Shown one piece after another: positions 19,365 to 59,724 of a stretch of DNA of 64,000 nt (the first letter of the stretch is position 1; every line of letters starts with the position of its first letter). The position numbers were made by a program, and so were the translations under genes. The notes beneath the pieces are model-generated. The model saw only the letters and a program-made list of their open reading frames with translations, made no database searches and had not been told where the DNA came from. Origin of the DNA: Eledone cirrhosa. Taxonomy: Eukaryota. Location of the stretch: NCBI GenBank assembly GCA_964016885.1, contig OZ024743.1, positions 364,188,001-364,252,000 of the forward strand. The letters are read 5' to 3'.

Positions 19365-19399
<35 letters not shown>

Positions 19400-21335: not shown

Positions 21336-21444
<109 letters not shown>

Positions 21445-21699
21445 AGTCTTTCCGAAGCGTTAGATTTCTCTTCTGCTTTGTGTCATAACATTTATTTTAC
21501 TGTTTCAAAAACTTTTACTACTTTCTAATTCAAAACATTACTAACTTCTCTGGATACTCCTGTTTTGCAACAACTAATAATAGTTTTAAGACTTCACATT
21601 CGCATTGATCATAGCTTCAACTAATTTCTACATCAGTAAATAAATGCCTCTATTAGATGAATTGGAATGTGCTTTTCGTTCGTGTGTGTCTAGTTGCCA

Positions 21700-21810
21700 T
21701 ATAAATGTCATCTATAGCATGCATTAAATGTCTTTTCTGTAGTCACATATACATTGGACAGACCGGCTACGTGTTGGTAGATCGTTTTGCTAAACATCTA
21801 CGAGACATCT
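21700..21810 (+). pseudogene. Penelope-like element GIY-YIG endonuclease remnant
   Basis: NVIY (other frame)...KCLFCSHIYIGQTGYVLVDRFAKHLRDI matches the PLE GIY-YIG pattern CxxC-x-YIGQT...RF.EH. Confidence 0.75.
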
Positions 21811-26327: not shown

Positions 26328-26413
<86 letters not shown>

Positions 26414-26419: not shown

Positions 26420-28100
26420 AAAAGTTTAAGCAAAGAATTTCTGCTTTCACTCGAAGCGAGATCATCCGAAACTGTTCATTTTAGAACAGCCGAATAATTT
26501 ATAGCTCGACTGTTCGGTGAGGGCAGGGGGTCAGAGACGGTTACAGACTTCAGTTCCTACCTCGACGGTCTCCCCCGGCGATGTTGAGTGCTGCAAAAGG
26601 CCGATAACACATAAAGACCGAGATTTGGGATGCTTTGGTTGGTTTCACGAGGCGCAAGTCACCCGGTTTGGATGGTCTGCTCTACGAATTTTGCCTAGAT
26701 GCGCCAGACTTGTTCTCCAATCTCCTTGAAATGATCTCCTGCAACTGGCAGCAGAACAGAGTGTTCCCAGTTCTGTGAGCCGGGGTGTAGTAACGCTGAT
26801 AAGGAATGGCGAGAACAAGAAGGATACAGTAGATAATTTCCGGTCCATAACTCTGTTGAACACAGAGTTTAAGATTTGGGCCAAGGTGTTAACGAAGAGG
26901 TTGGTGCTTGTGGTCTAGGTTCGGATAGGGAAGGCGCAAACTTGTGCAATCCCGACCAGGTCCATACACGACAACCTCCGCCTCATGCGATACATCATAG
27001 AGAGGGAAGGGTGTAAACCTGGTTTCAGTGGGGTTCTGATCAATTTAGATCAATCAAAAGCCCACGATGAGGTTGACCATCCATACCTAGAGGCTGTCCT
27101 CCAGGCAGCTAGCTTCGGTCCCGTATTCAGGCGCTGTATCGCTGCAATGAACAGCGGCATCTGTTCGGTGGTCAAAGTAAATGGTCATCTTTCGGAACCG
27201 TTTCAGCTCGCGCGATCGCTCTCCCCTCCCTTCTGAACGTATTGACTCTCGAGCCTTTACTGCGGAAGATGGAGATGTTGCAGTGCATCCCGCGCGAAGC
27301 GTAGCTTGGAAGGGCTGTATCGGCATGTGCGGATGACATCTCTGTGATGGTGTGGAACACCTCGGAAATCGAGATGGTCGACACCTTCCTTCGAGAATAT
27401 GAAAGGTTGACGGGAGCAAAACTGAAACCAGAAAAGACAGTGGGTTTGAAGCTCGGCACCTGGAGAGGCAAATCCATGCCGTTCAACAGCATCGTCGGAC
27501 GCTGGATGGACGACCAGTAAAGTTGCTCGGGGTTTGGCTTGGACCAGACCTCCTGGTGGATACAAACTGGAATGCTAGAGGTGACTAGCAGGGTGGTCAC
27601 TCTCACCCAGAAATGGGTCGACAGGAAGCTGTCCCTGAAAGGTCAGGTGGAGATGGAGAATGTGTACACCGTGTCTGTCATCTACTATCACCTGACCGTC
27701 GTGCTTTGCTCACGTTCGCACCTCACCAAATTAAAACGTCTTCTCTTCTGCTTTTTTAAGGAAGGGACAGTTTCCATTGGTGAGTCGGTCTATCTGCTGC
27801 CAGCACCTTCTTCGCGGATCGCTGGGCATGCCATGGCGGATGATGCACAAGCTACGGCATCTTCAGATATCCTTAAACGGTGAATAGTTGTGGTTGCTGT
27901 TTGTAAGACCGGGCTTTCCAGAGCTCCTCTCTTTGACTGAGCTGCAGTCCTGGATCAGGAAGAAACCGAGACTGGACGCCTGGTATCTGGAATGTTTGCA
28001 GGTGCTCACTGCCCAGGCTGGCAATGCGGTCAATGGAAATTCCACTCTAGAATTCTATAGAAGGTTAGGGGTGGGCAAGTACGACGACGCTCTTGGAGAG
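26420..28100 (+). mobile_element. degenerate Tx1/L1-clade ORF2 fragment
   Basis: MRYIIER, LINLDQSKA, RKLSLKGQ; homologous to the 41-42.6 kb region. Confidence 0.88.
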
Positions 28101-28620
28101 TCAGCAATATTTTCTTTATTTATTGCAGTGATGTTTTTTCAGGCATCCGTTCCACATATTTTTTAGTTCCCTTTTTTATCGTTCCAAGTGCACCGACTAT
28201 CACTGGTATTGTATAGGCTTTAAGATGCCACATTTTCTCAATTTCAATTGATAGATCTTTATACTTACTGAGCTTTCTGAACTTTTTCGAGATGTTACGA
28301 ACTGATAGAATGCTCATGTCAATTAAAAAACATGTTTTCTCTTTATGGTCCTTCACAATTATATCAGGTTTGTTGGCCTTGATTGTTCTGTCAGTGTTCA
28401 CAGGGAAATCACAGTGGATTGTTACATTACTGCATCTAAGTGATGGTTGTACCATTTTCCCTCCGTGTTCAGACCATAAACCCTGCACATTACCCATTGT
28501 AAATATTTCCCCACTCTATCATGCATCGTTTTATATTGCTGGGGAGCTAATACTCTGCAGCCTGAAACCACACCTGAAACCACAATGGTCTCAATTTTGC
28601 TCATCACATAATTGACACAT
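28101..28620 (-). mobile_element. R4/Dong-like C-terminal (RLE) fragment
   Basis: NKPDIIVKD...LIDMSI...KLSKYKDLSIEIEKMW...IPVIVGALG. Confidence 0.88.
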
Positions 28621-28649
28621 TGGCTTTAAAGTTGCGCGTTGACCGACAC

Positions 28650-29580
28650 TGGTTATCTGTAGCCAAAATCTCTACCTTCCCCTAACTTTCTATAGAACGT
28701 AAGTGTTGTTTTCTGGCCACCTATCACGTTGTTCAGTTGGTAATGTGCCGTGAATGCCTGATAGCATGCTAGATGCCAGTCACCCAACCTTCGTCTGCGC
28801 TTGAGCCAGGACTGTAACTCGATGACCAAGGAGACGAGCTGTGGAAATATATGACGTTCGAAAGGCGGCCACACTGGTTGTGCTTCGCTTTCGTTATCAT
28901 CGTTATTACTGTTCTTGATGTAATAAGACAGGTGCGTTAGTCACGGCGCGTATCTGCGCATCTAATTGATGGCATCCTGAAGGCACCATGGAGTGGATGT
29001 TGGAAGCAGATTGATTTTTTGATCAGCGGGACTTCCCCCTTCCACAAAAAAGTAGAAAAGCATGCGTTCCAATTTGGTCAAGTGTTTTGGGGGACATGGT
29101 ACAAGGGTCATATAGTAATATACCACTGAAGTGATGTGCCAACACATAAAGAAGGGGGAATGGGACATCCCTGGTGGACCGAGCGTTTGATAAGGAATGA
29201 TTCCGGTATGTAGCCATTTAGTTTGACTAGCGAACAGGTGTTGCAGTAGAATGTAGCGATCCATCTTCTGAAATCAGGGTCAAATCTAGTTGCTCGTAGG
29301 ACAGCCTCAAGGTAGCAATGGTCTACTCACTCAAATGCTTTGGACTGATCTAAATTAACCAGGGCTGCAGCAAAGTTATGTCTATTTTTGACTCGTTCTA
29401 CGATATATCTCATGAAACTGATATTGTCATGGATCTGTCAGGGATTGCACAGGTTTGTGCAGCTCCGATTACACTAGAAATGGCACATGTCAACCCTCTG
29501 GCAATCACCTTCGCTCTATGTTCAGCTCTATGTTCAGGCGAGTTATGAGCCTCAAATTTTCAATTACGTCCCCCATGTAA
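28650..29580 (-). mobile_element. highly degenerate Tx1/L1-clade ORF2 pieces
   Basis: FPQLVSL..LQSW, YYYMTLVPCP..LTKLERMLF, NLDQSKAF remnants. Confidence 0.75.
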
Positions 29581-29669
29581 TGCTGTAAACGTAGGTCCGA
29601 TGTTTATAAAATTGAACTTCCCATCAATAAGATGATTTGGGAAGATCGTCACAACCAGAGCAAGAAGTT

Positions 29670-29930
29670 TGAACAGACTATAAAAAAGCTTTTGACAGTA
29701 ATGCCACATAGTTGGATCGAGAAATGTTTGGCAACTTATAAGATATGACCTATTTTAAGAAACTGTCTATTTGTTTGTATGAAATCATGGAAAACTACAC
29801 TGGTTTTGAATAATGAGAACTCTCTGAATGTTGAAAACTCTCGTCGTATTTTTCAGGGGGATTCTCTATCACTTCCCTTCTTTTGTCTAGCTCTGATACC
29901 TCTATCCAGATTACTCAGTGAAACACACCA
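29670..29930 (+). mobile_element. R4/Dong-like RT fragment
   Basis: DYKKAFD, HSWIEKCL, MKSWKTTL, IFQGDSLS, FCLALIPLS, collinear with ~37965-38225. Confidence 0.85.
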
Positions 29931-29934
29931 TAAT

Positions 29935-32900
29935 ATATATAGAAAACAAAAACAAAGGATGTAACAAAAAAAAATAAAAACAAAGGAAAAATTCCCCAAT
30001 AGGGGGAAGACTTCCGATGGTCACTCGTTGAAAAAGCCCACAAAAAGCCACGGTCACCCTGACCGCTAGAGCAAGCGCCCTATCCCAGTTTTCCTCCTAC
30101 GCTACTACAGGCACACACTCAGAGAAGACCTATTCACACGGGCCATTCTTGCCTCTCTCATCCATCTTTCAACAAACTGGCTGGAAGGCAGCACATCCCT
30201 CTCCACCGTGATTTTCTTTTTCAAGTAAAACCTGAAAAAGTTAATGAGGGCGTCACCGAAGAGGAACGTGCCTGTCTTCAGCCCTTTCAGACGCATCCAC
30301 CATACAACCTCTTTCACCATGGCCACCAGGCAGATAAATATCACCTGCCCATTCTGGTTAAAAGAGGATGGCGGGGCAATCTTCATGATGGACAGGCCCG
30401 GCTAACGGCACTTCCATGCCTGTAAAGTTTAACTCGAATTGGCAGTGCTCCCCGGTAACACTGCCAGGCCAGGGACTTCTGGAAGCTATACATTGACCCT
30501 GGACCAAAAGTCTTCCCGAAGAGCTAGTTGGCTTTCGCCGAAACCCAGAGTTTCCCCAAGGACGTCGTCGCTCTTGCCCTCCATTAACCCTCTATAGAAC
30601 GTCAGGGTGGAGTTTCCATCGATCGCATCGCCCAACTGGTCGAGGGCTGTGAGCGCCTGAAGACATTCCAGTCTCCAAGCGCTTCCTCTCGGTCTTCGCT
30701 TGACTGCAGCTCCGTCAAGGAGACGAGCTGGGGGAAACGTGTCTAGCAAACGGCGACGCACCTGTTCACCGTCGAGAAAGAGGTGGACATGCCGTAGCCT
30801 CAGTGCATGTCTGCGCATCATCAACAACGGCAATCCCAGCGCTCCACGTAGCGGGTGTTGACAGCAGATAGACACCTGACCATCGGAGGTCCCTTCTACA
30901 AAAAGCGAAAGAGCAAACGCTCCAGCGCAGTCAGGCGAGGCTTAGGACAAGGCACGATGGTCAGGTGGTAATAGATGAGAGAGGTCACCCCGCTCGTCAC
31001 CTTGTCCCAGGTGTTGTCCGTCTGGAGGTCCTGACCGAACCAGACCCCTATCAATGTAACCAGTCCGTCCGTCCAGCGCCCGAAGACGCTGTTGGATGGC
31101 ATGGATCTGCCTCTCCGGGTTCCGAGCCGCAGACCCACCAACTTTTCCTGGTTGATCATTGTTCCTATCTCCGCCTCGTAATCTCTTAGAGTAGTGCCGA
31201 TCGCCTCGATGTGTTTGGCGTTCGACACTACTACGTTGACGTCGTCGGCTTATGCTGACACGGTTCTCCCGCATCCCAGTTCGGACGGGACGCCCCTCAA
31301 CGTCTCCAGTTCGTGCATTAAAGACTCGAGAGTCAATACGTACAACAGGGACGAGAGGGGATATTTTCGGCGGATCGAGCGCATGATGTTGAACGGTTCT
31401 GAAAGGTGACCGTTCACTCTCACCACAGAGCGGATGTTATTGTGCATGACAGTATCCTACCTCCAAAGACGGGCCCAAATCTGGACGCTCTCGGGATCGC
31501 CGCCAGATAACGAGAGTCGACCCTATCAAAAGCTGAATTAATCAAGGCGTCACCCGTGCCATGTTCGTTAGCTATCCTCTCCACGATGTATCGCATGAGG
31601 TGGAGGTCATGGATGGATCTGTTTGGAATGGCGTATGTCTGCGCCTCTCTCACCAGACCACCGACGACAAACGCCAACCTCTTTACTAGCACCTTGTGTT
31701 TAGCAGAGTTATCTATGTTGTTCTCCTTGTTCGGGTCCTTTCTCAGCAGCGCCGCCGCTCCTCGGCTCACAGAGCTGGAAATTCTCCCGTTCTGCCGCCA
31801 GTTGCAGTAGACGTCCGTCAAGAGGTCGTCGAGCAAGTCTGGCATGTGTACGTAAAGCTCGTAGGGCAGACCATCCAAACCAGCAGATTTACCCCTTGTG
31901 CAGTCAGTCATTGCCTCCCGTACTTCAGCGGTTGTTATTGGCTTTTCGCAACACTCCGCCTCAGTGGCCGAGAGCCACGGCAACCGTCGAGGTAGGCACA
32001 AAAGTCCATCATGCGATCCGACCGACTCCTGCCTCCGAACAGCTGAGCGAAGTTCCACTGAAAAGCCGCACACATTTGCTCGGGTTCGAGTAATATGCGC
32101 CCGTCGTGGTCCTCCAAAGACCGGATCATGGCTTTGTTGCCACGATACGCCTCCGCCTCTCGGGCCTATCGAACGGCTTTCGTCCCCTCGTGTCTGACAA
32201 TGCAGCCTTCGTGCTTTGCGTTGAAGAATTGGTTGAGGGCAAATCTAGTCACAAGCACGTCGGTCACAATGCCTTTACTAAGCACCTCGTCTAATTTTCT
32301 AACTAGTTCTCCCATCTGCTCTATTTTTCTCTATTACTAACACCTTACTAAACCTAATGGACTCTATTCTAATCGCCCTTTTTCAGGACGAACCACCATT
32401 TGTTGTTGACGATTGTCTCCTTCAATGCCCGCTTAATTAGTTTGCTAATCCGGTCTCTGTGGGCTTTGCGCGCTGTTAACGATGCGTTTAGCTTCCAGTA
32501 GGCGTCTATGAAGCCTATCTAAGTCGACCACACAGATCACGACTTTGTGGTTCGTGTAGTCGACTATTTTGAATTGTGGACAACCTATTCTAGAACTATA
32601 TATTTACTTACAAAATACTCTATCAAGATACGATCTGGATGACCCGATGCGGTTTGTCCATGTCCACATTGGCACATTCGGGAAATCCAGTCGGTACCTG
32701 TCAGACAGTTGGAAACGTCTGAGCAGGTTTGTGAGGCTTTTACACTCTCCTCTCCTATCCGCTAATTTCATATAATCCCAGCCTGCATCCAAGATCCCGT
32801 TCCAATCACCCACTAACATTAAAGAGCGGGACGTTCCTAGGAGGGTCTCCAGTCACCTGAAGAAATCAGGCCGTCCTGCCCGCCGGGGCTTAAACAGCCA

Positions 32901-33060
32901 CTAGCCTAAAAGCATAACTTTCGCTGCTGGTCACGTCCAGCACCACCAACTTACTTTCTGGGTCTAGGAAGATGGTCAGTATCACGAGATCCAGGCCTCT
33001 TCGAAACAACACAGCAACTCCACCTCCCAATCCCGGCCGGCTTGAAGATGCGTACACATC
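29935..33060 (-). mobile_element. degenerate Tx1/L1-clade element (nearly whole ORF2 plus 3' UTR)
   Basis: Collinear with ~40240-43660; APE and RT motifs with frameshifts. Confidence 0.92.
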
Positions 33061-33370
33061 TTGGTTGTGGTGTTCGACATTATGGCGGTGGAGATGGCGG
33101 CTTCAACACCTGTAGACATTGGCAAATGCGGGAAGTCTACGTCTGCACGTGGCAAACTTTGGCGATTTCTATTGTTGCTGATGCTGTTAGTGAAAACGTT
33201 ATCGGTTTTGGCAATTATAGCAAGGTTCACAATGGTGGTAGTGGTAGTAGTGTGTATGTTAGAGCCGCTGTCGCGTGACAGCTGGCTTAATTTGGGGAGG
33301 CGTATACCGTCCATGTTTTTTTTTTCAAAACAATTGCTTGGTTGATAAAATAAAGTTTTAATAATAAGTT

Positions 33371-33372
<2 letters not shown>

Positions 33373-33423
<51 letters not shown>
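33373..33423 (+). repeat. (AAT)n tract, 5' flank of Dong insertion
   Basis: Direct reading. Confidence 0.97.
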
Positions 33424-33424
<1 letters not shown>

Positions 33425-34858
33425 GACGATCTTAAGCTCTTCGGGAAAAGTGAGAAGGAGTTGGATGTGCTTGTTGACACTGTCCGTATTTTCAGCAGTG
33501 ATATATGTATGCAGTTTGGTATTGGTAAATGTAGAGTCATTGTGATGAAGAGGGGTAGGTTGAGCAGAAGTAACGGGATCCAGATACCAACAGGTGAGAT
33601 GATAAAGGAAATTGACTCTGGGGAAGGATACAAGTATTTGGGCGTTCTGGAGGCTGATGGCATAAAGAACAAAAAAATGAAGGAATTGTTAAGAACTGAA
33701 TACATTCGAAGAGTAAGGAGCGTATTGAAGTCACATCTGAACAGCAGAAATGCCATAAGCGCAGTAAATTCCCGAGCTGTGTCTATTATTAGGTACAGTG
33801 CGGGAATTCTGAGATGGAATGTTGCTGAACAAAAAGAAATGGATAGGAAGACTAGGAAGCTATTGACTATCTACAACATGTTCCACAAGAGGAGTGATGT
33901 CGATAGACTCTACCTAAGGAGATCTGAGGGTGGAAGAGGTCTTATCAGCATAGAGGACTGTGTTCAGATGGAGAAAAACAACCTATACAAATACATGACC
34001 TATAGTAAGGAGCCAATGCTCAGAACTGTACTGAAGGAGGGGACAGTAGGCCAGGGGATGTCCAAGGAGGAAATAACATCAAGGAGGAAGAGCAGCCTTA
34101 AGGGAAAATCCCTTCATAGTACCTTCTTTGAGAAAACTGAATTTAGAGATCCACAGACATGGAACTGGTTGAGAAGAGGAGACCTCAAAAAGGCTACAGA
34201 AGGAATGCTAATGGCTGCGCAGGAGCAGGCCCTCAAAACGAAGTGGTTGAAGCACCATATCTACAAGGAGGAGGCTAGCCCACTGTGCAGGATCTGTGGA
34301 GAGAGAGAGGAGACTGTGGCTCACATTGTGTCCGAGTGTAAACACCTAGCCCAGACCCACTATAAGGGCTGGAGACACGATGTGATGGGCAGGGTGATCC
34401 ACTGGCACCTGTGCAAAGTAAACAATCTACCACATTCTGAGAAATGGTATGAGCATAGGCCAGAGGCGGTGATGGAGAACAGTCAGGTGAAGGTGCTGTG
34501 GGATTTTAGGATACAGACGGACAAAAAACTGGAACACAATAGACCTGACCTGGTGGTTGTGGACAAAGAAAAAAGATCGTGCCTGATTGTGGATGTGGCC
34601 TGCCCGTTCGACACGAGAGTGCAAGAGAAGGAGAGGGAGAAAATTAACCGATACCAGGACCTAAAGTGGGAGGTGAAAAGGATCTGGAACTGCCATGAAG
34701 TCAAAGTGATCCCGATTGTCATAGGCGCACTGGGGACTATCTCCAAAGGTTTCCAGGGATGGTTAAAGAAAATCGGCCCCTTCACGCTTTTTGGAACGCT
34801 TCAAAAGGCATGCTTGCTTGGAACAGCAAGAACCCTCCGATACGTCCTGAATATCTGA
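33422..34858 (+). CDS. uninterrupted C-terminal 478 aa of Dong-like RT/RLE protein (truncated, not functional alone)
   Basis: MDDLKL, YKYLG, RSEGGRGL, CRIC...HIVSEC, RHD, RPDLVV...VDVACP...K..Y. Confidence 0.8.
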
Positions 34859-34927
34859 GGCTGCAGGTAGTGGCTTGATATTCAACGGACTTTCCAGTTA
34901 ACCAACATCAATGACTGAGATTCAAGG
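33422..34927 (+). mobile_element. 5'-truncated R4/Dong-like element (family B), flanked by (AAT)n on both sides
   Basis: Close sibling of 48858-50364; (AAT)n tail at 34928-35013. Confidence 0.93.
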
Positions 34928-34939
34928 AATAACAATAAC

Positions 34940-35013
<74 letters not shown>

Positions 35014-36011
35014 GGAATACCTAGGGAAGAAGACGCACGAGGTGGTAGAAGGTCATGAAATCGCTCCCGTAAGTTTTTGATTTTTAACATATTTAAATCA
35101 ATTGTGAAATAACAATTCTTAGTACAAATGTTGCATAAACCAACGAATGAAGTCCCATAAAATTTCGGATCCACATTATATTGTTATATCGCTCAAATAT
35201 TCAATTTTGTATTATATATTTTGTATTCAAAAAAAGAAAATGGTTATAAATGGAAGAAAACACCCTGTCTACACTATATAGAACAGCCAAATAACAGCAA
35301 TTTCACCAACACCAGAAACTTGATACACCACCTATCCCATCACACTAAATATAACAGCCAGATAACGGCAATTTCACCACCACCAACATCAATCCCGGCA
35401 TGATAATAATAATTACTATTATTATTGTCTCAAATTTTAACAAAATGTTTAATTCCAATTTTACGGGAATATGTCAACACAATATATATTAAACATACGA
35501 AGACAAACTCATAGATACTACATATCACAAAACCCAGTAACCACAACGCCACCGCCGCCACCACCCCATCCATCATCTTGCTACCACTATCCCATCGCCG
35601 CCGCCACCACTCCTTCATTGCTACCACCACTATTCCCCTGTTAACTTGAGAGAGAAAGGGGAAGGTGGCGGTATCACTAGACAAGGGAGAGGCTAGCAAA
35701 AGATATAAATAGATTGACTTAGTGACCTGGCCACCGGCCAAACGTCAACATCAACAACTATGGGACTGCTGACTCACCCCTTCCTCACCAACAATATAAA
35801 AAGCCCCGGCACCACCACCGACATAGCCAACAACAATAACAGGCAACTACAGCAAAAAGTATATTATATTATTGTAATGCACTGGGTGATTGCTGGCCTT
35901 GTGCCTGGAGTGGAGACAATTATTAATAATTTCATTCTTAAGCCACGCAATGCTCACATTAAGGAACCACTCATGATAATAACAATTTAAAAAAAACAAC
36001 AAAAAGAAAAC

Positions 36012-39966: not shown

Positions 39967-39980
39967 AATAATAATAATAA

Positions 39981-40130
39981 TATAAGTACATCACAAGTCT
40001 AAACACTAAAGATGCATGTGTGAGTATGTATGTTCTTTCTTGAACATGGCGGACCTTGTTGTCTCTTGAGGTCACTGGTTGTGACTTGGTGATAACTCGT
40101 ATGAACATAAAGCAAGATAAATGCAACTGT
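39981..40130 (+). mobile_element. second copy of the family-A 3' UTR with its own (AAT)n tail
   Basis: Near-identical to 39817-39966 with a few substitutions. Confidence 0.9.
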
Positions 40131-40398
40131 AATAATAATAATAATTATTATTTCTTTATTAACCACAAGGGTTTACATGAAGTAGACATTAAGGACAGTG
40201 CAGGACAATACAGGACGGTACAAATGGGCATTTCTGCGTGTAAAGAACAAAAACAGAGGATGTAACAAAAACTAACAATGAAAATTTCCCCAATAGGGGG
40301 GAGACTTCGGAGGGACATTTGTGGAGAAAGCCCAGTAAAAGGCCCCAGTGACCCTGACCACCAAGGCAAGTGCCCTCTCCCAGTTTTCCACCTTTAAT

Positions 40399-43300: not shown

Positions 43301-43815
43301 AAAACGCCTGAGCAGGTTGGTGAGGCTCTTGCACCCTCCACCCCTATCCGCTAATCCCACACAGTCCCAGCGTGCATCTAAGATCCCGTTCCAGTCGCCC
43401 ACTAACACTAAAGAGCGGGACGTTCCAAGAAAGGTCTCCAGACGCCGGAAGAAATCAGGCCACCCTGCTCCTGTCGGGGCATAGACGGCCACTAGCCTGA
43501 AAGCTTGCCCGTCTCCGCTGGTCACGTCCAGCACCACCAACTTACCCTCTGGGTCCAGGAAGATGGCCCGTATGGCGAGATCCAAACCTCTCCGAAAAAG
43601 CACAGCAACTCCTCCCCCGATCCAGGACGGCTGGGAGATGCGTACACATCGTAGCTGCCGAAGATCGGTGCGAAGGCCCGTGCTTCGGAGATTCTGGTCT
43701 CGCTGATGGCCACTACATCTATGTTTAGTGACCTGAGGTCGTTGAGCAGGTGACCCTGCTTCCATGACGACCCCAAGCCACGTGCATATATGCTGCCTAT
43801 TCTGAGTGAGGTCAT
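40399..43815 (-). pseudogene. ORF2, APE endonuclease plus reverse transcriptase (about 2 frameshifts and 1 stop)
   Basis: MTSLRIGSI..ISET, VYAP, LVGDWN, SYLDR, TDHK; FRPITLLN, LDQSKSFDRVDH, VRQGCPLS, YADD; C-terminal CPRC..ETVLHAL..C. Confidence 0.92.
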
Positions 43816-43817
43816 AT

Positions 43818-45881
43818 TTAAAATAGAGTGGAAAAGATGGGAAAGACCACTTACCGTACTTTTCGTAGAGGAGGGATGGTTTTTCCATCCCTTTGCACTT
43901 GATCGTCTGGTGAAGGGACCGTTGAATCGTCCCTTCGGCTGGTCGTCGGCTCTTCTATGAGTATGTCCGAATATACTCTTCGGTTGAGTGTCCCTCCTAG
44001 GTCTCTGAAATCACCAACTGCGTTGGGGAATTTCGTTTTAAGGTTTGTGTATTGTTTCTGTGCTATTTTTAGCAGTCTTATGTTAGTTGGCGTTTTGATT
44101 GGTGCTGGTATTATGTAGTCGTGTTGTGAAATGTCTTTGTGTTCAATTATGCAAGTCATTAGTTTCTTGCTGTGTGTATTTATTGCCGTGCATTTGTTTT
44201 TCTGGGGGTGGGGGTGGTTCTGCTATTTTCTTGTCGCTGTTGCTGGGTGTGTGTGTTTTGTTGTTGTGTTTGCGATGTTGGTGCTTGTGGTGGTGGTGTT
44301 GAAGGTGTTGTTGTTGTTGGCGGTGGGGTTGTCGCCGGTGGTGATGGTGGTGCTAGTGTGGGTGGTGATGGTGTTGGTGATGTTGCTTCTGTGAGTCTCT
44401 TTGCAGTAGCCTTTACCTTTTTTTCATTTCTTTCCTCCCTTTTCAAAGGCGACGATGCGCTGCTTCTGCGTTTGTGCCTTCTTACGACCTTTTGCCATCC
44501 CTCTCCCACCTCACACTCCATGTCTGATTCTGTGAGGTCGGGGAGGGGTACCAGCTCCACTCTTTCACTTGTTATTGTTGGTGATGTTTGCACTGGAGTC
44601 TCTGTTGCAGCTGCATTTGGTATTGCTGTTGTTGTTGTTAATACTTCCACTGCTGCTGCTGTTTTTGATTTCCGTGGCGTGGGTATGGGTGCCACGGACC
44701 TATCGTTCCTGGTTGCCGCTTGTCCTGTTGCTGGTAGCCGTGGAGCCGGTTTCGGAAGGAGGGGGGTTTTCTCCTTTCTCAGGGTCTTCTCGTTGCAGAA
44801 GGCCCTGAGGTGAGTCTTCGATCCACAGCGAAAGCATTTCGGGCGTTTGCCCTCAACACTTATGGGCAGTTGAGTGCTGTTATCGAAGTCTATCACATCC
44901 GAGATAGCTTCGATGCACTCCTGGTTGGTTTGGATTAACATCTCAATGGAGGTGCCGACCCAATCTTCTCTTACTTTTTTCTGTACTTGCAGTACAGTTG
45001 TTTTGTCCTCGATTCCGACGAGGACAGACGCGGCCAGCCAAGAAGGGGCCATCCTGGGGTGTGGCAAAAAGTACGTCTACGGTGGCATATTTTTTGCCTC
45101 GGGTGATGTGCGTTTTCCGCTGCCACACAGACCCCAAGGCTTTTTGTATTTGAGCCTCTGTGGCTCTTTCAACCCTACGGGATTTTGTACTTACTGTACG
45201 GTACGTGACCGTACAGTGCTGTTGGGTTTCGAAAAATTTTTCGGCTGCCTTGCAGATTGCTCGGTGTTCAGTTTTTGTCACCATCTTCTTCGCTTCCTCT
45301 AATTCCTCATTTGTTATGAGGATGGTTTCCAGGTTCTTTGCGATACCAGCAAACGAGATTGGTTTTTCTTTGCTGCTGTTGTTGTTGTTGTTGTTGTTGT
45401 TGTCGTCAGAGCTGCTATTACTTTTGTTGTTGCTGCAGGTACTACGACTACTGCCGCCGCCGCTGTTGCTGTGGTTGTTGTTGTTGTTGTTGTTGCTGCA
45501 GCTGTTGTTGTTGCTGCTAATGCTGTTGTTGTTTATGCTGCTGCTGATGCTGTTGCGGCTGCTACTGTTGTTTTCCTTGTCACTGTTGCTGCTGTTATTA
45601 CGGCTGCTACTGCTATTATTCCTGACGTCAGACGAATGAAATCGGTTTTCGTATTTCCCGTACACCTTTTTCGTCGTTGTCGTCGTCGTCGTGGAGAAAT
45701 CTTGCTCGCTTTGCACGTGATTTTTCTTTTCTGGCGTCGCTTGCGAAAGAGAAGGGAGGGAGAGAGACACATTTAGAGAAGGGAGGGAGAGAGACAATCT
45801 TCTCTCTGCTGTAGTGACGATTGAGGAAGAAGAAGACGGAATGAGTGGGAGTGACCTATGAAAATTCTTTTTCGTAGCCAT
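43818..45881 (-). pseudogene. ORF1, nucleic-acid-binding protein with Asn/Ser-rich N-terminus and CCHC knuckle (frameshifted)
   Basis: CFRCGSKTHLRAFC = C-x2-C-x4-H-x4-C; a TAA lies 2 nt before the ORF2 ATG. Confidence 0.8.
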
Positions 45882-46785
45882 GTTGTTTTTTTGTTTAAAA
45901 TAAATATTGGGCACAAAACCCCAATAAGCGGTTATTTAACCCCGAAGGGCCAAATAACGGGCAGAAAGACCCCTCTCACGAGGAGGAGGGTGTTTTTGTC
46001 TACAAGTTGGTTAAAGTTTTAAACAATTTACAATTGTTATAGCGGTCAAAATTTACAATACCTTACAGAGCCGAGCCTCCGTCAACCATAGCATTCAATA
46101 ATAATAATAATAATAATAATATATTTAAAACAACTGTGATAGAATGATTCTTATTACAAATGAAGTATAAGATTACAGTTTCTACGCTCAGCAAGCCACA
46201 ACACAACGCATCACTTTACGGCATAGGGCCCCAATATTTAATATTTAATTTTGGATCAGAAATGTTATAGTCGAAAAAGAGGAAAATAGCAAAATGGCTA
46301 AGTGGACAGACAGGCAAATAATTTCACCACCAACACCATCACCACTACCACGCCAAAAACTCTAGTCAAGTTACCTCAAATTCTATTTCTACTTCAACTT
46401 CAACACCATCACTACAGTACTACGATCACATCACCACCACCACTGCCTCATTATCGCTACCGCCGCTATTCTCTCCCACTACCTCCTGCTAAGACATGCA
46501 TCGTAGTGTCCCCACTAAAAGAGGAAGGCATCAAAAGATATAAATAGACTGATTTGATGACCCGGTCAAATAATCAGAAAACCAAAATTCAAAATCAAAA
46601 CAGCAAAGCAACAACGAAAAACGTAAAGAAAAGAAAAATGAAAAGAAAAACAAACAGACAGACAGAGAGGGGAAAAGAAAAACTAAGTCAGACATTCAAA
46701 CATTACATTACAATGAAACTTATGTTTATTCTTTTGGTTTTTTTTTTTACCTATTTGTTTGTTTGTTTATTTATGTTCGTCTACA

Positions 46786-49700
46786 CCGTGATAGTGCCAC
46801 ACTAAAATCACCGGGGGTGATGAAATCACCGGTGGTTATGTAAGCATACATTCACCAATCCTCGATAAGAGTGTTTAAATGTCGAACCTAAACAGTTCGA
46901 ATAACGGTGAAGTGGAGACTGGAATGTCATGTGACAGACTCTCACCCAGCAGGTGCTCCCTGGCTCAGCAGCAGGGACCTGGCTGTCAACCAAAAACTGC
47001 TGGTGCCGGAGGAAGAAGAAGGAAAGGGACCAGAACCAACTGGATGAAAGAATTGAATAGAACTGTTATGCAATGTTACTTGAAGAGTAACCCCAAGGAG
47101 AAAGGCTATAGGAAACGGATGCATAACATCTGGAACGAGATTGGTCTATTTAAATTAGATGAACAAAAATTGGCCGGGCAGGCTCGGGTAATAAGAACTA
47201 ATGGGTGGATAAGCGAGCTGGAACTGGAGGAACTGAGCAGAGAGATTAAGTTGGAAATGGAGAGTGGAGTATGCCAGGCAAACGAGCCAGTGGGAAATGA
47301 AGGCGAAGAGGTTGAGAGAACGGAGGAACCATCTGAAGCAGACAATGATCTGAATGCTGAAATAAATAATACCTGGAACAAAGATACGGCCATTGAGGAG
47401 ATGAATGCTGACGGGCTAGGACAAGATTTGGTTGATATCCTAAACTTAGTGGTAGATGAATTGAACAATGATAGTGGGAAACCTATGAACCTAAGATTTG
47501 TAGACAGGAAAAAGTTAAAAGAAACAACAGCTAAGTTAAACAAAGTCATCCCATACCTTGAGGCGAGGAGCCTTCACCAGTGCAACAATATCCTCAAAGC
47601 AACAGCAAATGCGGTGAGGAAATTACTTGGCATAAAAGCGAGAGGAAACACAAACAAGAAAGATCAGAACCTTGGTGGAAGAAACGACTGAATGGTCAAA
47701 TCAGGGAAATGAGAAATGACATTGGAAAGCTTGAGTCCCTACTGAATGGGACACTAAAAAACATAGACACTAAAAATAGACTGGAAATAAAGTACAAAAC
47801 TAGGAGGAAAAAGCTAAATATTATCATAGAGGAACTGAAGCAACGCATTGTAGCAAAGAGTGCAAAAATTAGGCGATACGAGAGCAGAGTCAGTCAGTAT
47901 AGACAGAACCGCATGTTTGACAACAACCAGAAGATGTTTGGACAGCTTGAAGGGAAAGAAAGAGGCAACGACTTAATCCCTGAGGCGGAACAAACTAAGA
48001 CATTCTGGAGAGGAATATGGGAGCAGGATGTTAAACATAATGACCAGGCAGTGTGGATTGAGACAGTACAAAAGGAGATTAGTGAACAGGCACACCAACA
48101 AACTGATTTGAGTATCACAGTTGAAACTCTTAAAGGGCAGGCCAAAAAACTAACCAACTGGAAATCACCAGGCCCAGATGGTGTGCAGGGGTATTGGATT
48201 AAAAATATAACATCCCTCCACCCGAAACTGACAACCATGTTCAATGACTGCTTGATGTCAGGTGAGGTACCAGAGTGGTTGACAAAAGGTACCACAGTTC
48301 TGGTAATGAAAGACCGAATCAAGGGTAATGATGTTACCAACTATAGACCTATCACATGTCTGTCCGTAATGTGGAAACTGTTAACAAGCATTATGTCTGA
48401 GGAAATCTACCATCACCTCCACACAAACAACTTCTTACCGGACGAACAGAAAGGATGCCGAAAGAAGTTCCGTGGTACAAAGGACCAGTTACTTATTGAT
48501 GAGGAATGAGGAATTGCAAGAGGAGACACACTGGTCTTGCCATGGGATGGATAGACTACAAAAAGGCATTTGACATGGTGCCTCATTCTTGGATCACCAA
48601 AAGCCTAGAGATCTTCAAGGTGGCAGCTAACATCAGACAGTTGTTGGGCAAAAGTATGAAGTCCTGGAAAACAGAGTTAACATCAGCTGGAGAATCCTTG
48701 GGAGGCGTGAAGATCAAGAGAGGTATCTTCCAGGGAGATAGTCTGTCCCCTCTTTTGTTTTTCCTTGCCCTGATGCCCCTGACCATTATACTGCGAAAAG
48801 TGAGAGCAGGATACAAGTTGGGAAAGGGAGAGCTTACCATCAATCACCTCCTCTTCATGGACGATCTTAAGCTCTTCGGAAAGAGTGAGAATGAGTTGGA
48901 TGTGCTTGTTGACACTGTCCGTATTTTCAGCAATGATATATGTATGCAATTTGGTATTAGTAAGTGTGGAGTCCTTGTGATGAAGAGGGGTAAATTGGGC
49001 AGAAGCAACGGAATCCAGGTACCAACAGGTGATGATAAAGGAAATTGACACTGAAGAAGGATACAAGTATTTGGGTGTTCTGGAGGCTGATGACATCAAG
49101 AACGAAAAAATGAAGGAATTGATAAGATCTGAATACATTCGGAGAGTAAGGAGCGTATTAAAGTCACATCTGAACAGTAGGAATGCCATAAGTGCAGTAA
49201 ATTCCCGAGCTGTGTCTATTATTAGGTACAGTGCTGGAATTCTGAGATGGAATGTTGCTGAACAAAAAGAAATGGATAGGAAGACTAGGAAGCTATTGAC
49301 TATCTACAACATGTTCCACAAGAGGAGTGATGTCGATAGACTCTACTTAAGGAGATCTGAAGGTGGAAGAGGTCTTATCAGTATAGAAGACTGTGTTCAG
49401 ATGGAGAAAAACAACCTACACAAATACGTGACTGATAGTAAGGAGCCAATGCTCAGAATTGTACTGAAGGAGAGGACAATAGACCAGGGGATGTCCAAGG
49501 AGGAAATAACAACAAGGAGAAAGAGCAGCCTTCATGAAAAATCCCTTCATAGTACCTTCTTTGAGAAAACTGAATTCAGAGATCCACAGACATGGAACTG
49601 GTTGAAAAGAGGAAACCTTAAAAAGGCTACAGAATGAATGCTAATGGCTGCGCAAGAGCAGGCCCTCAAAACGAGTGGTTGAAACACCATATTTACAAGG

Positions 49701-50364
49701 AGGAGGCTAGCCCACTGTGCAGGATCTGTGGAGAGAGAGAGGAGACTGTGGCTCACATTGTATCCGAGTGTAAACACCTAGCCCAGACTCACTATAAGGG
49801 CTGGAGACATGATGTGATGGGCAGGGTGATCCACTGGCACCTATGCAAAGTAAACAATTTACCACATTCTGAGAAGTGGTATGAGCATAAGCCAGAGTCG
49901 GTGATAGAAAACGATCAGGTGAAGGTGCTGTGGGATTTTAGAATACGGACGGACAAGAAACTGGAACACAATAAACCTGACCTGGTGGTTTTGGACAAGG
50001 AAAAAAGATCGTGTCTGATTGTGGATGTGGCCTGCCCATTCGACACGAGAGTGCAAGAGAAGGAGAGGGAGAAAATTAACCGATACCAGGACTTAAAGTG
50101 GGAGGTAAAAAGGATTTGGAACTGCCATGAAGTCAAAGTGGTCCCGATTGTCATAGGCGCACTAGGTACTATCTCAAAGAGTTTCCAGGGATGGTTAAAG
50201 AAAATTGGCCCCGCCCCGCTTTTTGGAACACTTCAAAAGGCATGCTTGCTAGGAACAGCAAGAACCCTCCGATACGTCCTGAATATCTGAGGCTGCAGGT
50301 AGTGGCTTGATATTCATTTTAACAAACTTTCCAGTTAACTAACATCAATGACTGAGACTCAAAG
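46786..50364 (+). mobile_element. full-length R4/Dong-like element (family B), mildly decayed
   Basis: ORF pieces 46879-50290 cover the N-terminal RTNWMKELN motif, RT (FMDD), CCHC and RLE; (AAT)n tail 50365-50397; 5' boundary approximate. Confidence 0.92.
46879..50290 (+). pseudogene. Dong-like RT/RLE ORF split by several frameshifts and a stop
   Basis: Five overlapping ORF-track segments that join into one polyprotein. Confidence 0.9.
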
Positions 50365-50367
50365 AAC

Positions 50368-50397
<30 letters not shown>

Positions 50398-50399
<2 letters not shown>

Positions 50400-52986
50400 T
50401 TTCTTTATTGGCCACAAGGGCTGACATCAAGAAAAACATTACAGACGGCACAGGACGGTACAGGACGGTACAATGTGGGTTTTGTGCGTGTAAATATTTG
50501 TATTATTTATATAAGAAAAGAAAAAAAGGACATAGAAACATATATATATATAAACAATAAAAATGAAAATTGAAACAATGAAAAAATTCCCCAATAGGGG
50601 GGGAAACCTCCGAGGGTTACTCGTGGCGAAAACCACACATCCCTCGGTCTTTTTCTGACCCAGGACTGCAGCTCCGTCAAGGAGACGAGCTGTGGAAAAA
50701 CGTGCCTGGCGAACGGCGACCACACCTGTTCACCGTCAAGGAAGCACCAGAGATGTCGCAGCCTCAGCATGTTTGCGCATCATCAGCTATGGCATGCCCA
50801 GTCCTCCACGCAACGGGTGTTGACAGCAGATGGATCGTCTGACCATGGGAGCGCGTCCCTTCCACAAAAAGCGGAAGAGGAGGCGCTCCATTTCGGTGAG
50901 AGTTGGGCCGGGAGAAGGGACGACGGTGAGGCGGTAGCAGATGACGGATGCGATGTACGCATTCGCCACCTCCGCCCGGCCTTTCAGGGACAGCTTCCTC
51001 TTTGCCCATTTCTGGGTGAGGGAGGCCACCTTGCTCGTCTTCTCGCTCCAGTTTTTCTCCATCTGGAGGTCCGGTCCGAACCAGACCCCGAGCAATTTAA
51101 CCAATCCGTCCGTCCAACGCCCCCACGACGCTATCGGACGGCATGGACATGCCTCGCCAGGTGCCGAGCTGCAAGCCCACCGACTTTTCCTGGTTTATCA
51201 TTGCTCCTGTCACCGCTTCGTATTCCTTGAGAGCTGTGCCGAGCATCTGGACGTGTCTGGTGCTCGATACCACCACGGTGACGTCGTCAGCGTAAGCCGA
51301 CTCGGATTTCCCGCAACCTAGTTCGCGTGGGACGCCGATCATCGCCTCCAGTTTGTGCAGTAACGGCTCGAGAGTCAATGCGTACAAGAGAGACGAGGCG
51401 GGACAACCCTGGCGGACCGAGCGCATGATGCTGAACGGCTACGACAGGTTACCGTTCACCCTCACAACTGGACAGATGTCGCTGTACATCGCCGTGATCA
51501 AACCCCTGAAAACGGGCCCGAAACCGAATGCATCGAGGACCGCCGCCAGGTACCGATGGTCGACCCTATCGAATGCTTTGGATTGATCCAAGTTGATCAG
51601 GGCGCCACCCGTGCCAGGTTCCTTAACCACCCTCTCTATGATGTATCGCATGAGGTGGAGGTTGTCGTGTATGGATCTGTCCGGAATGGCGCATATCTGC
51701 GCCTCTCCCACCACACCCTTGACGTCACTTTGACCCTCACAATTTTCTGCCTGCAGTAGGAGGGCACCAAGACTATCTCCTCACTCTTTAGGATTTCCAA
51801 AGAGTGTGACTTCGCCTCTTGGGGGGTGACGAAAAGTACGTCTACAGTGGCGTACTTTTTGCCTCGGGTGATGTGGGTTTTGCGCGCCCAGACGCACCCC
51901 AAGGCCTTTTGGATTTGAGCCTCCGTGGCTCTCTCCACCCGATGTGACTGTTTGCTTACGGTGCGGTATGTCACCGTGCGCAGCCGCTGGTCTTTGAAGA
52001 AATCGGTTGGAGGTTTCAGGGAAATTCTATTGTCGTTTCTTGTCACCATGTCTCTTGCGATTGCCATCTCCTCCGTGACTAGCACTGTTTCTATATTTCG
52101 GGCTACACCTGCGAAAGAAGTGGCCCCTTTTTCAGCGGCACCATTATTGCTGCCGCTACTGGTCTTGTTGTTGGTGCTGTTGCTGTTGCTACTGCTACAA
52201 ACGGTATTGTTGGTGTTGTTGCTGTTATCACTGTTGTAGTTGGTTGTGTTTTCGGTGCCACCGTTGTTGTTGTTCTCAGTGCAATTTGTATTGTTGCTGT
52301 TGGTGTTGTCGTTGTTTATTTTCTTGTTAGTGGTGTTAATATCGTTGTTGCATTTGTTGTCATTTTTTCTGTTGTCTGTATTTTGGTTGTCGCTGTTGTA
52401 GTTGGTGTGGTAATTTTTTCAAAATTAGTGTTCCCAGTGTTGTCTTTGTTCACGTTGTTTGTGGTGGTGTCTGTTGTAACAATGTTTGCAACCCTCCTCT
52501 CAACTTTTACGCCATTGTCAGACGACAGCAGACATATTGCTGGGGGCGTGGCTCAGCTATGTTTTTTTTTAAACAATTTTTTTTTTATTAAGTGAAATGT
52601 TCGAATATTTGGGCCAAAAAGCCCAAATATTATACTTCCCCCTTCACAGGGCAAAGTCTAAGGGCTTATATCCCTTACACAACAAGAAATATTTAACAAC
52701 AAATAATGTTAACAGGCAAATAAGCGACTTACTGGGAGCGAGCAAAAAGCGTCCGAACAGACCTGTAGTGACTAGCGCCACCTTTGCCCGGGGAACAAAA
52801 CTAATTGGAATTACTTTCCCGTGGCCCGAATATAAGGGAGTGTTCTGGCGCCTCTCTCTCTCTTGCAGCTTGACCTTGCTAAGGTAAACACCAATTCTTC
52901 TTTTGCTCCGCAAGCACAAACAATATGTAACGACAAAACATTACTACGGGCCTGGCCAATGTCTCAGCCAGTCGACCGTACCTTCT
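50398..52986 (-). mobile_element. internally deleted Tx1/L1-clade element with both ends retained
   Basis: 3' UTR 50398-50635, RT middle 50640-51715, ORF1 N-part and 5' UTR 51716-52986; 5' end GAAGGTACGGTCGAC resembles GAATGCTATGGTTGAC at 46096. Confidence 0.88.
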
Positions 52987-53309
52987 CTTGCAATCTTAAT
53001 TGGTTTATTTCATTTCTTTTGGCATGCCAGCTTAACCTTGTTAATAAATAATGTAAAAACATGCTAAAGTCTTGGTGAGATATCTATCATATAATATTGC
53101 TAAAATGGTGACCCCCGACGGAGGAGTATTTAAGTACGAAATATTCCTTTAAAATAATTAAAAAAGAAATTAAAAAAATTAGCAGTATTTTCAAAAAATT
53201 TCAACACGAACACGCAGCAAAACAAATCACCATCGCTAAAAATGGAAAAAACACAAACAAACTCTTTCGTTGCAGCAAACTCAACCCGAAAGAACAAAAA
53301 AATAAGGAA

Positions 53310-58194: not shown

Positions 58195-58405
58195 GGACGG
58201 TATCAGTAGAGTGCCGGACACCATTCTTTGCGGCATATAGTTACAGTTCTTTACGTTCTGAGTTCAAATTCCACTGAGGTTAGCTTTGCCTTTCATGTTT
58301 ATGGAGTCAATAAAATAATGCCAGTAATGCACTGGGGTCGATTTAATCGACTTTCCTCTTCCCTGAAAATTGATGGCCTTGTGCCAAAGGTAGAAACAAT
58401 TATTA
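58195..58405 (+). mobile_element. tRNA-derived SINE, older copy
   Basis: Same core and tail as 1-210. Confidence 0.85.
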
Positions 58406-59462: not shown

Positions 59463-59724
59463 CCGACAGATAATATTAAGACATTACAACAGATACTAGA
59501 CAGCAGCCATTATAGTTGTTATCTTTGAATTCATTGTTAGTACCATAATACAATACAACTATGACAATAACAGGATTGAAGCCAATTATAATAGTGTTTA
59601 TATAGAAACCTTTCCGGGGTGTGAGTAGAAAAGAATGTGGTCAAGATTAATGTACCTGACAAAATCAGTGCAGATAACAGGCTATCAATTGACAGATAAA
59701 AATCATTCGTGTTGAAATCAAATA

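Follow-up and report, generated by a model that had tools for sequence, protein, structure and literature searches.

Antiparallel Dong-like and Tx1-like retrotransposons nested in one (TAA)n microsatellite of Eledone cirrhosa: probable targeting of opposite repeat strands

Why do two kinds of LINE, one Dong-like and one Tx1-like, lie in opposite orientations within a single simple repeat? The question is raised by an array of about 26 kb in a 64,000-nucleotide stretch of the Eledone cirrhosa genome (the window), in which at least 12 retrotransposon copies are piled in one TAA repeat. The initial annotation had described four tail-to-tail Dong/Tx1 pairs, numbered here 1 to 4 from the left, and had proposed a self-reinforcing nest of the two retrotransposons on a single microsatellite, their polarities being fixed and opposite. 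All four pairs were found in the reported orientations by tblastn, self-blastn and annotation, with Tx1(+)/Dong(-) in pair 1 and Dong(+)/Tx1(-) in pairs 2-4, although the parse was incomplete, three pieces having been missed. The multi-insertion nest with its fixed polarity was borne out. Very probably, it was built by independent insertions into one (TAA)n, the Dong and Tx1 copies being antiparallel because the two kinds would begin reverse transcription on opposite strands of the repeat.

The Dong-A frame encodes a reverse transcriptase, a CCHC motif and a restriction-like endonuclease; RVT_1 is the sole Pfam domain detected, an AP endonuclease being absent. Solved R2 proteins align with residues 449-1161, a match that covers the reverse transcriptase and continues through the C-terminal endonuclease region (E 2.5e-27). 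In the translation, C-x2-C...H...C and PD...D...K motifs can be read, which we take to be the CCHC and the PD-(D/E)xK signature of a restriction-like endonuclease. The Tx1 ORF2 contains Exo_endo_phos and RVT_1 domains (Pfam) and aligns with human L1 ORF2p over residues 114-771 (E 6e-38). The Dong/R4 label is a putative one, based on architecture and target. The label 'Tx1-like' was taken over from the initial annotation; an ORF2 with an N-terminal AP-type endonuclease and a reverse transcriptase, and the sequence-specific target, would fit the Tx1 clade. It also agrees with the 'L1-Tx1' class in use for octopus repeat annotation, as given in PMC13282606.

Pair 1 begins with an old Tx1-like piece (26504..28097, +; tblastn, blastn, annotation) truncated at both ends: its ORF2 starts at about residue 449, it breaks off near position 5114 of the young copy (5951 nt), and it is 72% identical to 40983-42568 (blastn). 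Its partner, an old Dong-like C-terminal piece (28102..28669, -; tblastn, direct reading), corresponds to residues 1003-1203 of the 1216-codon Dong-A frame, ends 13 codons short of the frame's end, without 3' UTR or tail, and shows 48% amino-acid identity to Dong-A (tblastn) and 30-41% to Dong-B. An old Tx1-like piece absent from the initial list follows (28668..29564, -; tblastn, blastn at 66%, annotation), its 3' part missing from about reference position 5100. In pair 2, an old Dong-like reverse-transcriptase fragment (29584..29934, +; residues 565-688, tblastn, 50% amino-acid identity to Dong-A) faces a Tx1-like copy (29942..33060, -) that is 5'-truncated inside the endonuclease domain, has neither the final ~97 nt at the 3' end nor a tail, and is at best 83% identical to its nearest genomic relatives. 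These two older pairs were correctly described as lacking both 3' ends and the microsatellite; the shared repeat and these ends, which the initial annotation calls deleted, were likely lost by later deletion.

The polarity of the nest flips at 28668. This counts against strand targeting, which leaves the flip unexplained and likewise does not account for the two inverted old Tx1 pieces breaking at near-identical internal points (~5114 and ~5100). When these inverted pieces are read as a fold-back duplication, the arms are ~68% alike over 254 nt and no closer to one another than to other copies.

To the right of pair 2 lies a (TAA)21 segment (33359..33423; TRF and direct reading), followed by a Dong-B copy that had also been overlooked (33422..34927, +). 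This copy is 5'-truncated at the YMDD motif, 93% identical to 48857-50400 and flanked by (TAA)21 and (AAT)28. The (AAT)28 (34928..35013; TRF) is both its tail and the 5' flank of a full-length Dong-A (35014..39981, +), which has an open 1216-codon frame (36171-39821), ends in (TAA)5 and carries a 46-nt SINE fragment in its 5' UTR (35873-35919). The Dong-A start had been placed at 36012; the real one lies ~1 kb further left, at ~35014 directly after (AAT)28, and six loci align back to 34928-35023. A second Dong-A 3' fragment of 164 nt (39982..40145, +), a segment present once in other genomic copies, ends in (TAA)6 (TRF). Against this repeat abuts the 3' end of the pair-3 Tx1-like copy, which is full-length (40146..46096, -; 5951 nt); its ORF2 has one in-frame stop (41519-41521) and shifts frame between 40850 and 41010, and its ORF1, with a CCHC knuckle, lies at 44180-45076. 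At an (AAT)8 (46097..46121; TRF), this Tx1 meets the pair-4 Dong-B copy head-to-head, 5' end to 5' end. The Dong-B copy (46122..50367, +; 4246 nt) has its reading frame split over several frames, and its start, previously set at 46786, lies 0.66 kb further left, at 46122 directly after (AAT)8. Beyond the tail-to-tail junction of pair 4, an (AAT)10 (50368..50397; TRF), comes a Tx1-like copy of another subfamily (50398..52763, -), with ~2.9 kb absent internally relative to the pair-3 copy and 91-95% identity to its nearest copies; similarity to three other loci sets its 5' end near 52763 instead of 52986. From 28668 rightwards, the order is therefore Tx1-, Dong+, Tx1-, Dong+, Dong+, Dong+, Tx1-, Dong+, Tx1-, with three tail-to-tail and three head-to-head Dong/Tx1 junctions.

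Did these copies arrive separately, or was one composite block copied? At least 39 other genomic copies match Dong-A at 99% identity, the genome yielding ~2000 first-look candidates for this family alone, and the partner of Dong-A, the pair-3 Tx1, matches 39 others at 97-98%. Protein identity of the old Dong pieces is 48-50% to Dong-A and 30-44% to Dong-B, and that between Dong-A and Dong-B is 34-52%. Compared with the pair-3 copy, the other Tx1 copies show identities of 72%, 66%, 80-85% and 78-84%, and truncation points all differ. The earlier statement that the pairs involve different Dong families and differently decayed Tx1 copies thus agrees with identities that vary widely, both within the window and against the genome; since partner families and ages differ so much, the pairs represent independent insertions and not one recent duplication. 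That they are copies of one block made by segmental duplication, or an assembly artefact, is barely credible given these distinct families, ages and truncation points, even though a 3554-bp tandem duplication of a Tx1/Dong-B/Tx1/Dong-B block at another locus (L056) demonstrates that composite blocks can be copied as DNA, and repeats of such youth are difficult to assemble. Contigs from four public runs over 33300-53200 were short and repeat-collapsed, with none bridging a junction, and their base differences were ordinary copy-to-copy transitions. Locus L021, colinear with window positions 33600-39982 at 98.3%, was considered as a segmental duplication and rejected, its Dong-B/Dong-A junction being of the commonest kind and its tails different.

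Which strand does each element use? Direct reading of 40125-40170 gives the Dong-A end, then (TAA)6, then the reverse-complemented Tx1 end; 50360-50420 reads as the Dong-B end, then (AAT)10, then the reverse-complemented Tx1 end. On their own strands, Dong copies end in (TAA)n and Tx1 copies in (TTA)n. Among 3'-complete copies, a TAA end was found in 57/57 Dong-A (though the reference end itself contains 5 units), in 40 of 45 Dong-B and in none of the Tx1 copies, 56 of 61 of which carry at least 4 terminal TTA units. All six full-length solitary Tx1 copies also have 3 to 15 TTA units immediately upstream, and (TTA)n thus lies on both sides. The remaining five of the 61 Tx1 tails depart from clean TTA: one (L043) is followed by (TTC)n, and another belongs to a copy outside any repeat, with a target duplication of ~9 nt.

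The fixed opposite polarity is most likely due to strand-specific targeting of one microsatellite, with strand choice deduced from these tails. Dong would nick the TTA strand, where its UAA-ending RNA would prime target-primed reverse transcription, and Tx1 would nick the TAA strand and prime in the same manner with UUA-ending RNA. Each insertion would keep the repeat on both sides and add a new tail, so that, by reasoning that sets no rate, an occupied repeat would offer more landing sites and the array would grow. Tail-to-tail and head-to-head neighbours would arise at similar rates, set by the landing point of the next element.

Does the same polarity recur elsewhere? Neighbours with a gap of at most 120 nt were scored in 76 loci of the same genome outside the window; these were selected for their resemblance to the young Dong-A and Tx1 of the window, so that young copies of two subfamilies are over-represented, and neighbours inside one locus are non-independent. 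Dong and Tx1 neighbours were antiparallel in 48 cases and parallel in one (L064), a split with a probability of ~1e-13 under 1:1 by our own arithmetic, in keeping with the non-random orientation expected from the initial annotation. The 48 comprise 26 tail-to-tail and 22 head-to-head pairs, counts that include one and two duplicate rows, respectively, from the internal tandem duplication at L056. Dong/Dong neighbours were in the same orientation in 67 of 71 cases and opposite in 4, and Tx1/Tx1 (10) and SINE/Tx1 (15) neighbours were always in the same orientation. The commonest neighbour of a Dong is another Dong, and Dong-B followed by Dong-A is the commonest junction kind. In one 25-kb stretch, 19 pieces were annotated, one of them a Tx1 and the others alignment segments of Dong-A or Dong-B, some of which probably belong to a single copy; all Dong there point the same way, and the Tx1 is antiparallel. 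The target (TAA)n is interstitial and scattered across all large contigs sampled. Because the polarity recurs genome-wide, the four 'convergent pairs' are a side effect of this arrangement, not a unit in their own right; the emphasis formerly placed on the tail-to-tail pair does not hold, head-to-head junctions being equally common both here and in the window. A 'self-reinforcing' nest is plausible, since each of the 12 (TAA)>=12 arrays listed first, all in the initial 2.8 Mb of contig 1, has a Dong, Tx1 or SINE copy in contact with it or no more than ~100 bp away. At five of the 22 head-to-head junctions, no repeat remains between two 5'-truncated partners; such junctions could form when the two 3' ends of one (TAA)n break each prime a different element's RNA.

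Might the tail-to-tail pair nonetheless be a true target unit, formed by a Tx1 lineage that homes to Dong 3' ends as a parasite of a parasite? For 12 of the 37 focal Tx1 copies, a Dong 3' end lies opposite their own within 150 nt, and the TAA-polarity part of the window contains three clean or decayed tail-to-tail junctions. However, 9/37 have a Dong on the 5' side and 16/37 have no annotated element by the 3' side; the six solitary copies described above lie in plain (TTA)n that extends to either side of them; and tandem Tx1/Tx1 and SINE/Tx1 junctions also exist, which together make this reading very improbable. Of 38 focal Dong-A copies, 5 have a Tx1 beyond their 3' end and 6 have one beyond their 5' end.

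Strand-specific targeting also bears on whether the layout serves silencing. As the initial annotation had suggested speculatively for piRNA and ADAR substrates, convergent or read-through transcription might yield double-stranded RNA for piRNA, siRNA or A-to-I editing, silencing both families, and the antiparallel layout might have been kept for this reason. The geometry permits it, and a poly(A) signal hexamer was found in the last 40 nt of 0/106 Dong copies, making read-through into antisense Tx1 conceivable. In contrast, AATAAA or ATTAAA lies 10-15 nt before the tail in 63/63 Tx1 3' ends, and Tx1 transcripts would therefore tend to stop before the partner. Tail-to-tail pairs are also no more frequent than head-to-head ones and, with polarity fully accounted for by targeting, selection is not needed; preservation for silencing is accordingly unlikely. 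A related proposal, that each nest would be a built-in dual-strand transcription unit, the two kinds having to lie antiparallel wherever they share a repeat, in which Dong reads into antisense Tx1, with thousands of nests acting as small-RNA or double-stranded RNA sources that check both families, is judged unlikely.

Mobilisation of the SINE by the Tx1 lineage would predict homologous 3' ends. The SINE and Tx1 3' ends have in common a CCTTGTG...AGAAA..A motif at equal distance from the ATT tail, but their local alignment score of 22 lies within those of shuffles, which reach 27, and only 17/55 SINE copies carry at least 4 TTA units. At gathering scores Rfam had no hit anywhere in the window, nor at E<=1 in the Dong-A 5' region (34900-36300), and hence gave neither an HDV-like ribozyme nor a tRNA call for the SINE; ARAGORN likewise found no tRNA.

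Overall, the locus offers a natural side-by-side case in which two unrelated endonuclease types read one simple repeat from opposite strands, and can be used to ask how LINE endonucleases and RNA tails determine target and strand choice. The process may account for much of the genome's (TAA)n landscape and its repeat hotspots. For annotation, 'convergent pairs' in such arrays have no meaning by themselves. LINEs that home to microsatellites are also of interest in genome engineering, as tools for insertion at safe sites.

How does the nest compare with known systems? Insertion of Dong in (TAA)n is already known: these microsatellites are described as the target of R4-clade Dong elements, including Bombyx Dong, DongAg and snail DongBg (PMC3812793). 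The window Dong resembles them in its single long frame, its reverse transcriptase and C-terminal restriction-like endonuclease region, and its own-strand TAA tails, but at least two young families (Dong-A and Dong-B) and older ones occur here in one genome. Microsatellite-homing Tx1-clade LINEs are reported to include Kibi in (TC)n, Koshi in (TTC)n and crocodilian Tx1 families in (TTCC)n/(TTTC)n (PMC4494074). Like these, the present Tx1 is an AP-endonuclease LINE homing to a microsatellite; unlike them, its target is (TTA)n, the complement of Dong's target, and no (TTA)n-seeking Tx1-type lineage was found in open-access papers and preprints. In Bombyx mori, TRAS1 and SART1 are described as inserting in opposite directions into the same telomeric (TTAGG)n (PMC7265360). 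That system, too, has two LINE families in the same tandem repeat in opposite directions; however, TRAS1 and SART1 are related AP-endonuclease elements at telomeres, whereas two unrelated endonuclease classes meet here in an interstitial trinucleotide repeat. In 28S rDNA, R1 and R2 combine an AP-endonuclease LINE and a restriction-like-endonuclease LINE on one multicopy target, at two fixed sites in the gene and in the same orientation. The present nest likewise brings both endonuclease types to a common target, but on opposite strands of one simple repeat.

The window sits on a 379-Mb contig of a 3.0-Gb genome. Self-comparison of the window, combined with tblastn searches using the region's two long open frames, showed that the stretch from 26504 to 52763, referred to here as the nest, holds two kinds of element in at least 12 pieces. 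The best copy of the first kind, belonging to the family Dong-A, contains an open frame of 1216 codons (36171-39821), in which reverse transcriptase is the sole Pfam match and an AP endonuclease is absent; residues 449-1161 align to solved R2 retrotransposon proteins (E 2.5e-27), from the reverse transcriptase through the C-terminal endonuclease region. The second kind contains an AP-type endonuclease and a reverse transcriptase in ORF2 (Pfam), residues 114-771 of which align to human L1 ORF2p (E 6e-38), and a CCHC knuckle was read in the sequence of ORF1, upstream of ORF2. As putative clade names, the label Dong follows from protein architecture and target, and the label Tx1 is that of the initial annotation.

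The four tail-to-tail Dong/Tx1 pairs listed in the initial annotation are all present and oriented as described: Tx1(+) 26504-28097 with Dong(-) 28102-28669 (pair 1), Dong(+) 29584-29934 with Tx1(-) 29942-33060 (pair 2), Dong-A(+) with a young Tx1(-) reference copy of 5951 nt at 40146-46096 (pair 3), and a member of a second family, Dong-B(+), with Tx1(-) from 50398 (pair 4). Three pieces had been missed, however, leaving that parse incomplete: a Tx1-like piece (28668-29564, minus strand), a 5'-truncated Dong-B (33422-34927, plus strand) between (TAA)21 and (AAT)28, and a second 3' fragment of Dong-A (39982-40145, 164 nt, plus strand), a segment that is single in other copies. Several borders also had to be moved. 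Genomic copies put the start of the full-length Dong-A at ~35014, right after (AAT)28, six fetched loci aligning back to 34928-35023, and the start proposed earlier (36012) was ~1 kb too far right; the Dong-B of pair 4 was placed by genomic copies and annotation at 46122 on the plus strand, right after (AAT)8, instead of 46786; and the pair-4 Tx1, which is on the minus strand and lacks an internal part of ~2.9 kb, has its 5' end near 52763, not 52986. Rightwards from 28668 the pieces follow one another as Tx1-, Dong+, Tx1-, Dong+, Dong+, Dong+, Tx1-, Dong+, Tx1-, so that Dong and Tx1 meet tail to tail three times and head to head three times.

Beyond the nest, two further old Tx1-like copies were found at 754-1785(+), with the 3' terminus ...AATAAAGAAATCA and no repeat after its end, and at 11986-15843(-), with the 3' end lost. 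The window also contains part of the reverse transcriptase of a different non-LTR element (7998-8711, plus strand), 22-26% identical to the Dong and Tx1 families, and a repeat pair of 343 bp (16887-17229 and 21378-21720; identity 99.4%).

Direct reading of the two young junctions showed how the partners meet. At 40125-40170, the Dong-A end leads through (TAA)6 into the reverse complement of the Tx1 3' end with no gap, and at 50360-50420 the Dong-B end leads through (AAT)10 into a reverse-complemented Tx1 end. Read on its own strand, each element has a distinct terminal repeat, TAA for Dong and TTA for Tx1. Thus, the two use opposite strands of the same double-stranded repeat, and their relative orientation is thereby fixed with further assumptions being unnecessary. 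A TTA tail of at least four units was present in 56 of 61 3'-complete Tx1 copies and a TAA tail in none of the 61, whereas TAA tails were present in 40/45 Dong-B copies and in 57/57 Dong-A copies, the last count being partly trivial since the reference end itself includes five units. All six full-length solitary Tx1 copies were also found to have a TTA repeat upstream, indicating that the repeat is a target and not merely a tail borne by the element. Among the 76 loci fetched from the same genome (L001-L076), one full-length Tx1 has (TTA)14 upstream yet (TTC)n past its 3' end (L043:2998-8841), and one 5'-truncated Tx1 lies outside any repeat with a target duplication of ~9 nt (L044:2998-3836); in a lineage otherwise bound to the repeat, such off-target events are rare. 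At L045, near 2998, the six TTA units of a Tx1 tail lead directly into (TAG)n, and (TAG)28 is located ~90 nt left of the nest (26328-26413); (TAG)n and the TAA/TTA repeats may be linked.

The polarity rule was evaluated across the genome in 39 loci surrounding the best Dong-A matches and 37 loci surrounding the best Tx1 3'-end matches (one overlapping hit and one small-contig hit being left out), the sequence on either side of the 12 (TAA)>=12 arrays listed first serving as an unselected control. Annotation of all loci used the copies of the window itself as references, and neighbours were counted at gaps of at most 120 nt, the window being excluded. Adjacent Dong and Tx1 copies were antiparallel in 48 cases and parallel in one. 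Dong/Dong neighbours were co-oriented 67 times versus 4 opposed, and Tx1/Tx1 neighbours 10 versus 0; a SINE described below was co-oriented with adjacent Tx1 in 15 cases and opposed in none, and opposed to adjacent Dong in 13 versus 3. Relative orientation is therefore not random in the 76 loci, and the opposite polarity on one microsatellite proposed from the window alone holds genome-wide. The convergent pair is not a unit. The 48 antiparallel neighbours comprise 26 tail-to-tail and 22 head-to-head cases, of which an internal tandem duplication in L056 contributes one and two duplicate rows, respectively. Focal Tx1 copies had a Dong on the 3' side in 12/37 loci and on the 5' side in 9/37, and focal Dong-A copies a Tx1 in 5/38 and 6/38, one locus having no recognised focal copy. 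Tail-to-tail is thus not preferred, and "four convergent pairs" is one of two equally valid bracketings of an alternating array.

At each of the 12 control arrays, a Dong, Tx1 or SINE copy either touches the array or is located within ~100 bp. In a 25-kb stretch among them, 19 pieces were annotated, counted as alignment segments, some of which probably belong to one copy; these are Dong-A and Dong-B segments and one Tx1, with every Dong co-oriented and the Tx1 antiparallel. The nest is one among very many in this genome. Head-to-head Dong/Tx1 junctions without a repeat, both partners being 5'-truncated, were observed in 5 of the 22 cases, four of them independent (L009:2459-2538/2534, L011:5233-5238, L054:4081, L056:1201/1202), and in the window at 29564/29584; at some of them, 5-6 nt match both elements. 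Such junctions may have arisen by deletion of the target or by priming of two RNAs at the same break.

The mechanism proposed here is based on the two protein architectures, the strand-specific tails, the repeats flanking solitary Tx1 copies on either side and the genome-wide polarity rule; we infer the strand-choice steps from established features of target-primed reverse transcription (compare the passages of PMC7265360 on TRAS1/SART1). Dong would nick the TTA strand and prime on RNA with a UAA-repeat end, and Tx1 would nick the TAA strand and prime on RNA with a UUA-repeat end. Every insertion would cut the repeat into two and add a new tail, so that occupied repeats would hold more sites and expand. 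Among 3'-complete copies of the window and the 76 loci, AATAAA or ATTAAA was found 10-15 nt ahead of the tail at 63/63 Tx1 3' ends, whereas neither was found in the last 40 nt of 106 Dong copies. Judged from these signals, read-through from Dong into antisense Tx1 would be more plausible than the reverse. The role in silencing, through piRNA or RNA editing, that the initial annotation suggested for such antisense RNA is a speculative possibility.

The pairs differ widely in age. The nearest other copies are 99% identical for Dong-A, 97-98% for its partner Tx1 in pair 3, 91-95% for the pair-4 Tx1, which falls inside another subfamily, and at most 83% for the pair-2 Tx1; the pair-1 Tx1 is 72% identical to the young copy. 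At the protein level, Dong-A and Dong-B are 34-52% identical, and the old Dong pieces show 48-50% identity with Dong-A and 30-44% with Dong-B. Since partner families and these identities vary so widely and truncation points differ among all window elements, derivation of the pairs from one duplication was rejected, in agreement with the initial annotation. Nests are sometimes copied as DNA elsewhere, as in L056:1-6525, where a composite Tx1/Dong-B/Tx1/Dong-B block is duplicated in tandem over 3554 bp, with no sign of such copying within the window. In another locus, the first 417 nt of a Dong-B copy are inverted versus the remainder, resembling a twin-priming product (L036:6384-9550).

Pairs 1 and 2 lack the repeat and the 3' ends of both partners, as was already recognized, which is most simply read as a deletion spanning the shared repeat. 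At 28668 the nest switches polarity; a 570-bp Dong piece here separates two inverted old Tx1 pieces (26504-29564). Their break points, at ~5114 and ~5100 of the 5951-nt copy, agree within ~15 nt, yet the arms are only ~68% alike over 254 nt in self-comparison; the two pieces may stem from an old fold-back duplication.

The tRNA-like SINE, ~188 nt long and closing with a CCTTGTG...AGAAACA motif and ATTATTA, was found at 1-210, 10146-10333, 10346-10533, 19177-19365, 58206-58403 and 59172-59465(-) of the window, and was not called by ARAGORN or Rfam. Within nests it follows the orientation of Tx1 (15/15). A real TTA repeat hosts only 17 of 55 SINE copies, and likeness to the Tx1 3' end was not above shuffles in a simple alignment test. 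In the 5' UTR of Dong-A, an active-looking family, 46 nt of the SINE 3' end recur in sense (35873-35919), followed by ATTATTAATAAT; the Dong-A founder seems to have acquired a piece of a nest.

How do these nests compare with known systems? In open-access papers and preprints, neither a Tx1-type lineage aimed at (TTA)n nor a description of Dong and Tx1 sharing one repeat was found. Dong-R4 and L1-Tx1 both figure among the recently active LINEs of a repeat annotation for octopus, in passages that leave such nests unmentioned (PMC13282606). Insertion of Dong in (TAA)n is already well known (passages of PMC3812793), and this target is common to the known Dong elements and the Dong-like copies here. 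Microsatellite-homing families of the Tx1 clade are described, in the relevant passages of PMC4494074, as targeting (TC)n, (TTC)n and (TTCC)n/(TTTC)n, unlike the (TTA)n used here; judged from these papers and preprints, (TTA)n is a new target for a Tx1-type lineage, the underlying behaviour being already known. Finally, TRAS1 and SART1, two LINE families, insert into one tandem repeat in opposite directions, according to the same passages of PMC7265360, just as Dong and Tx1 do here.
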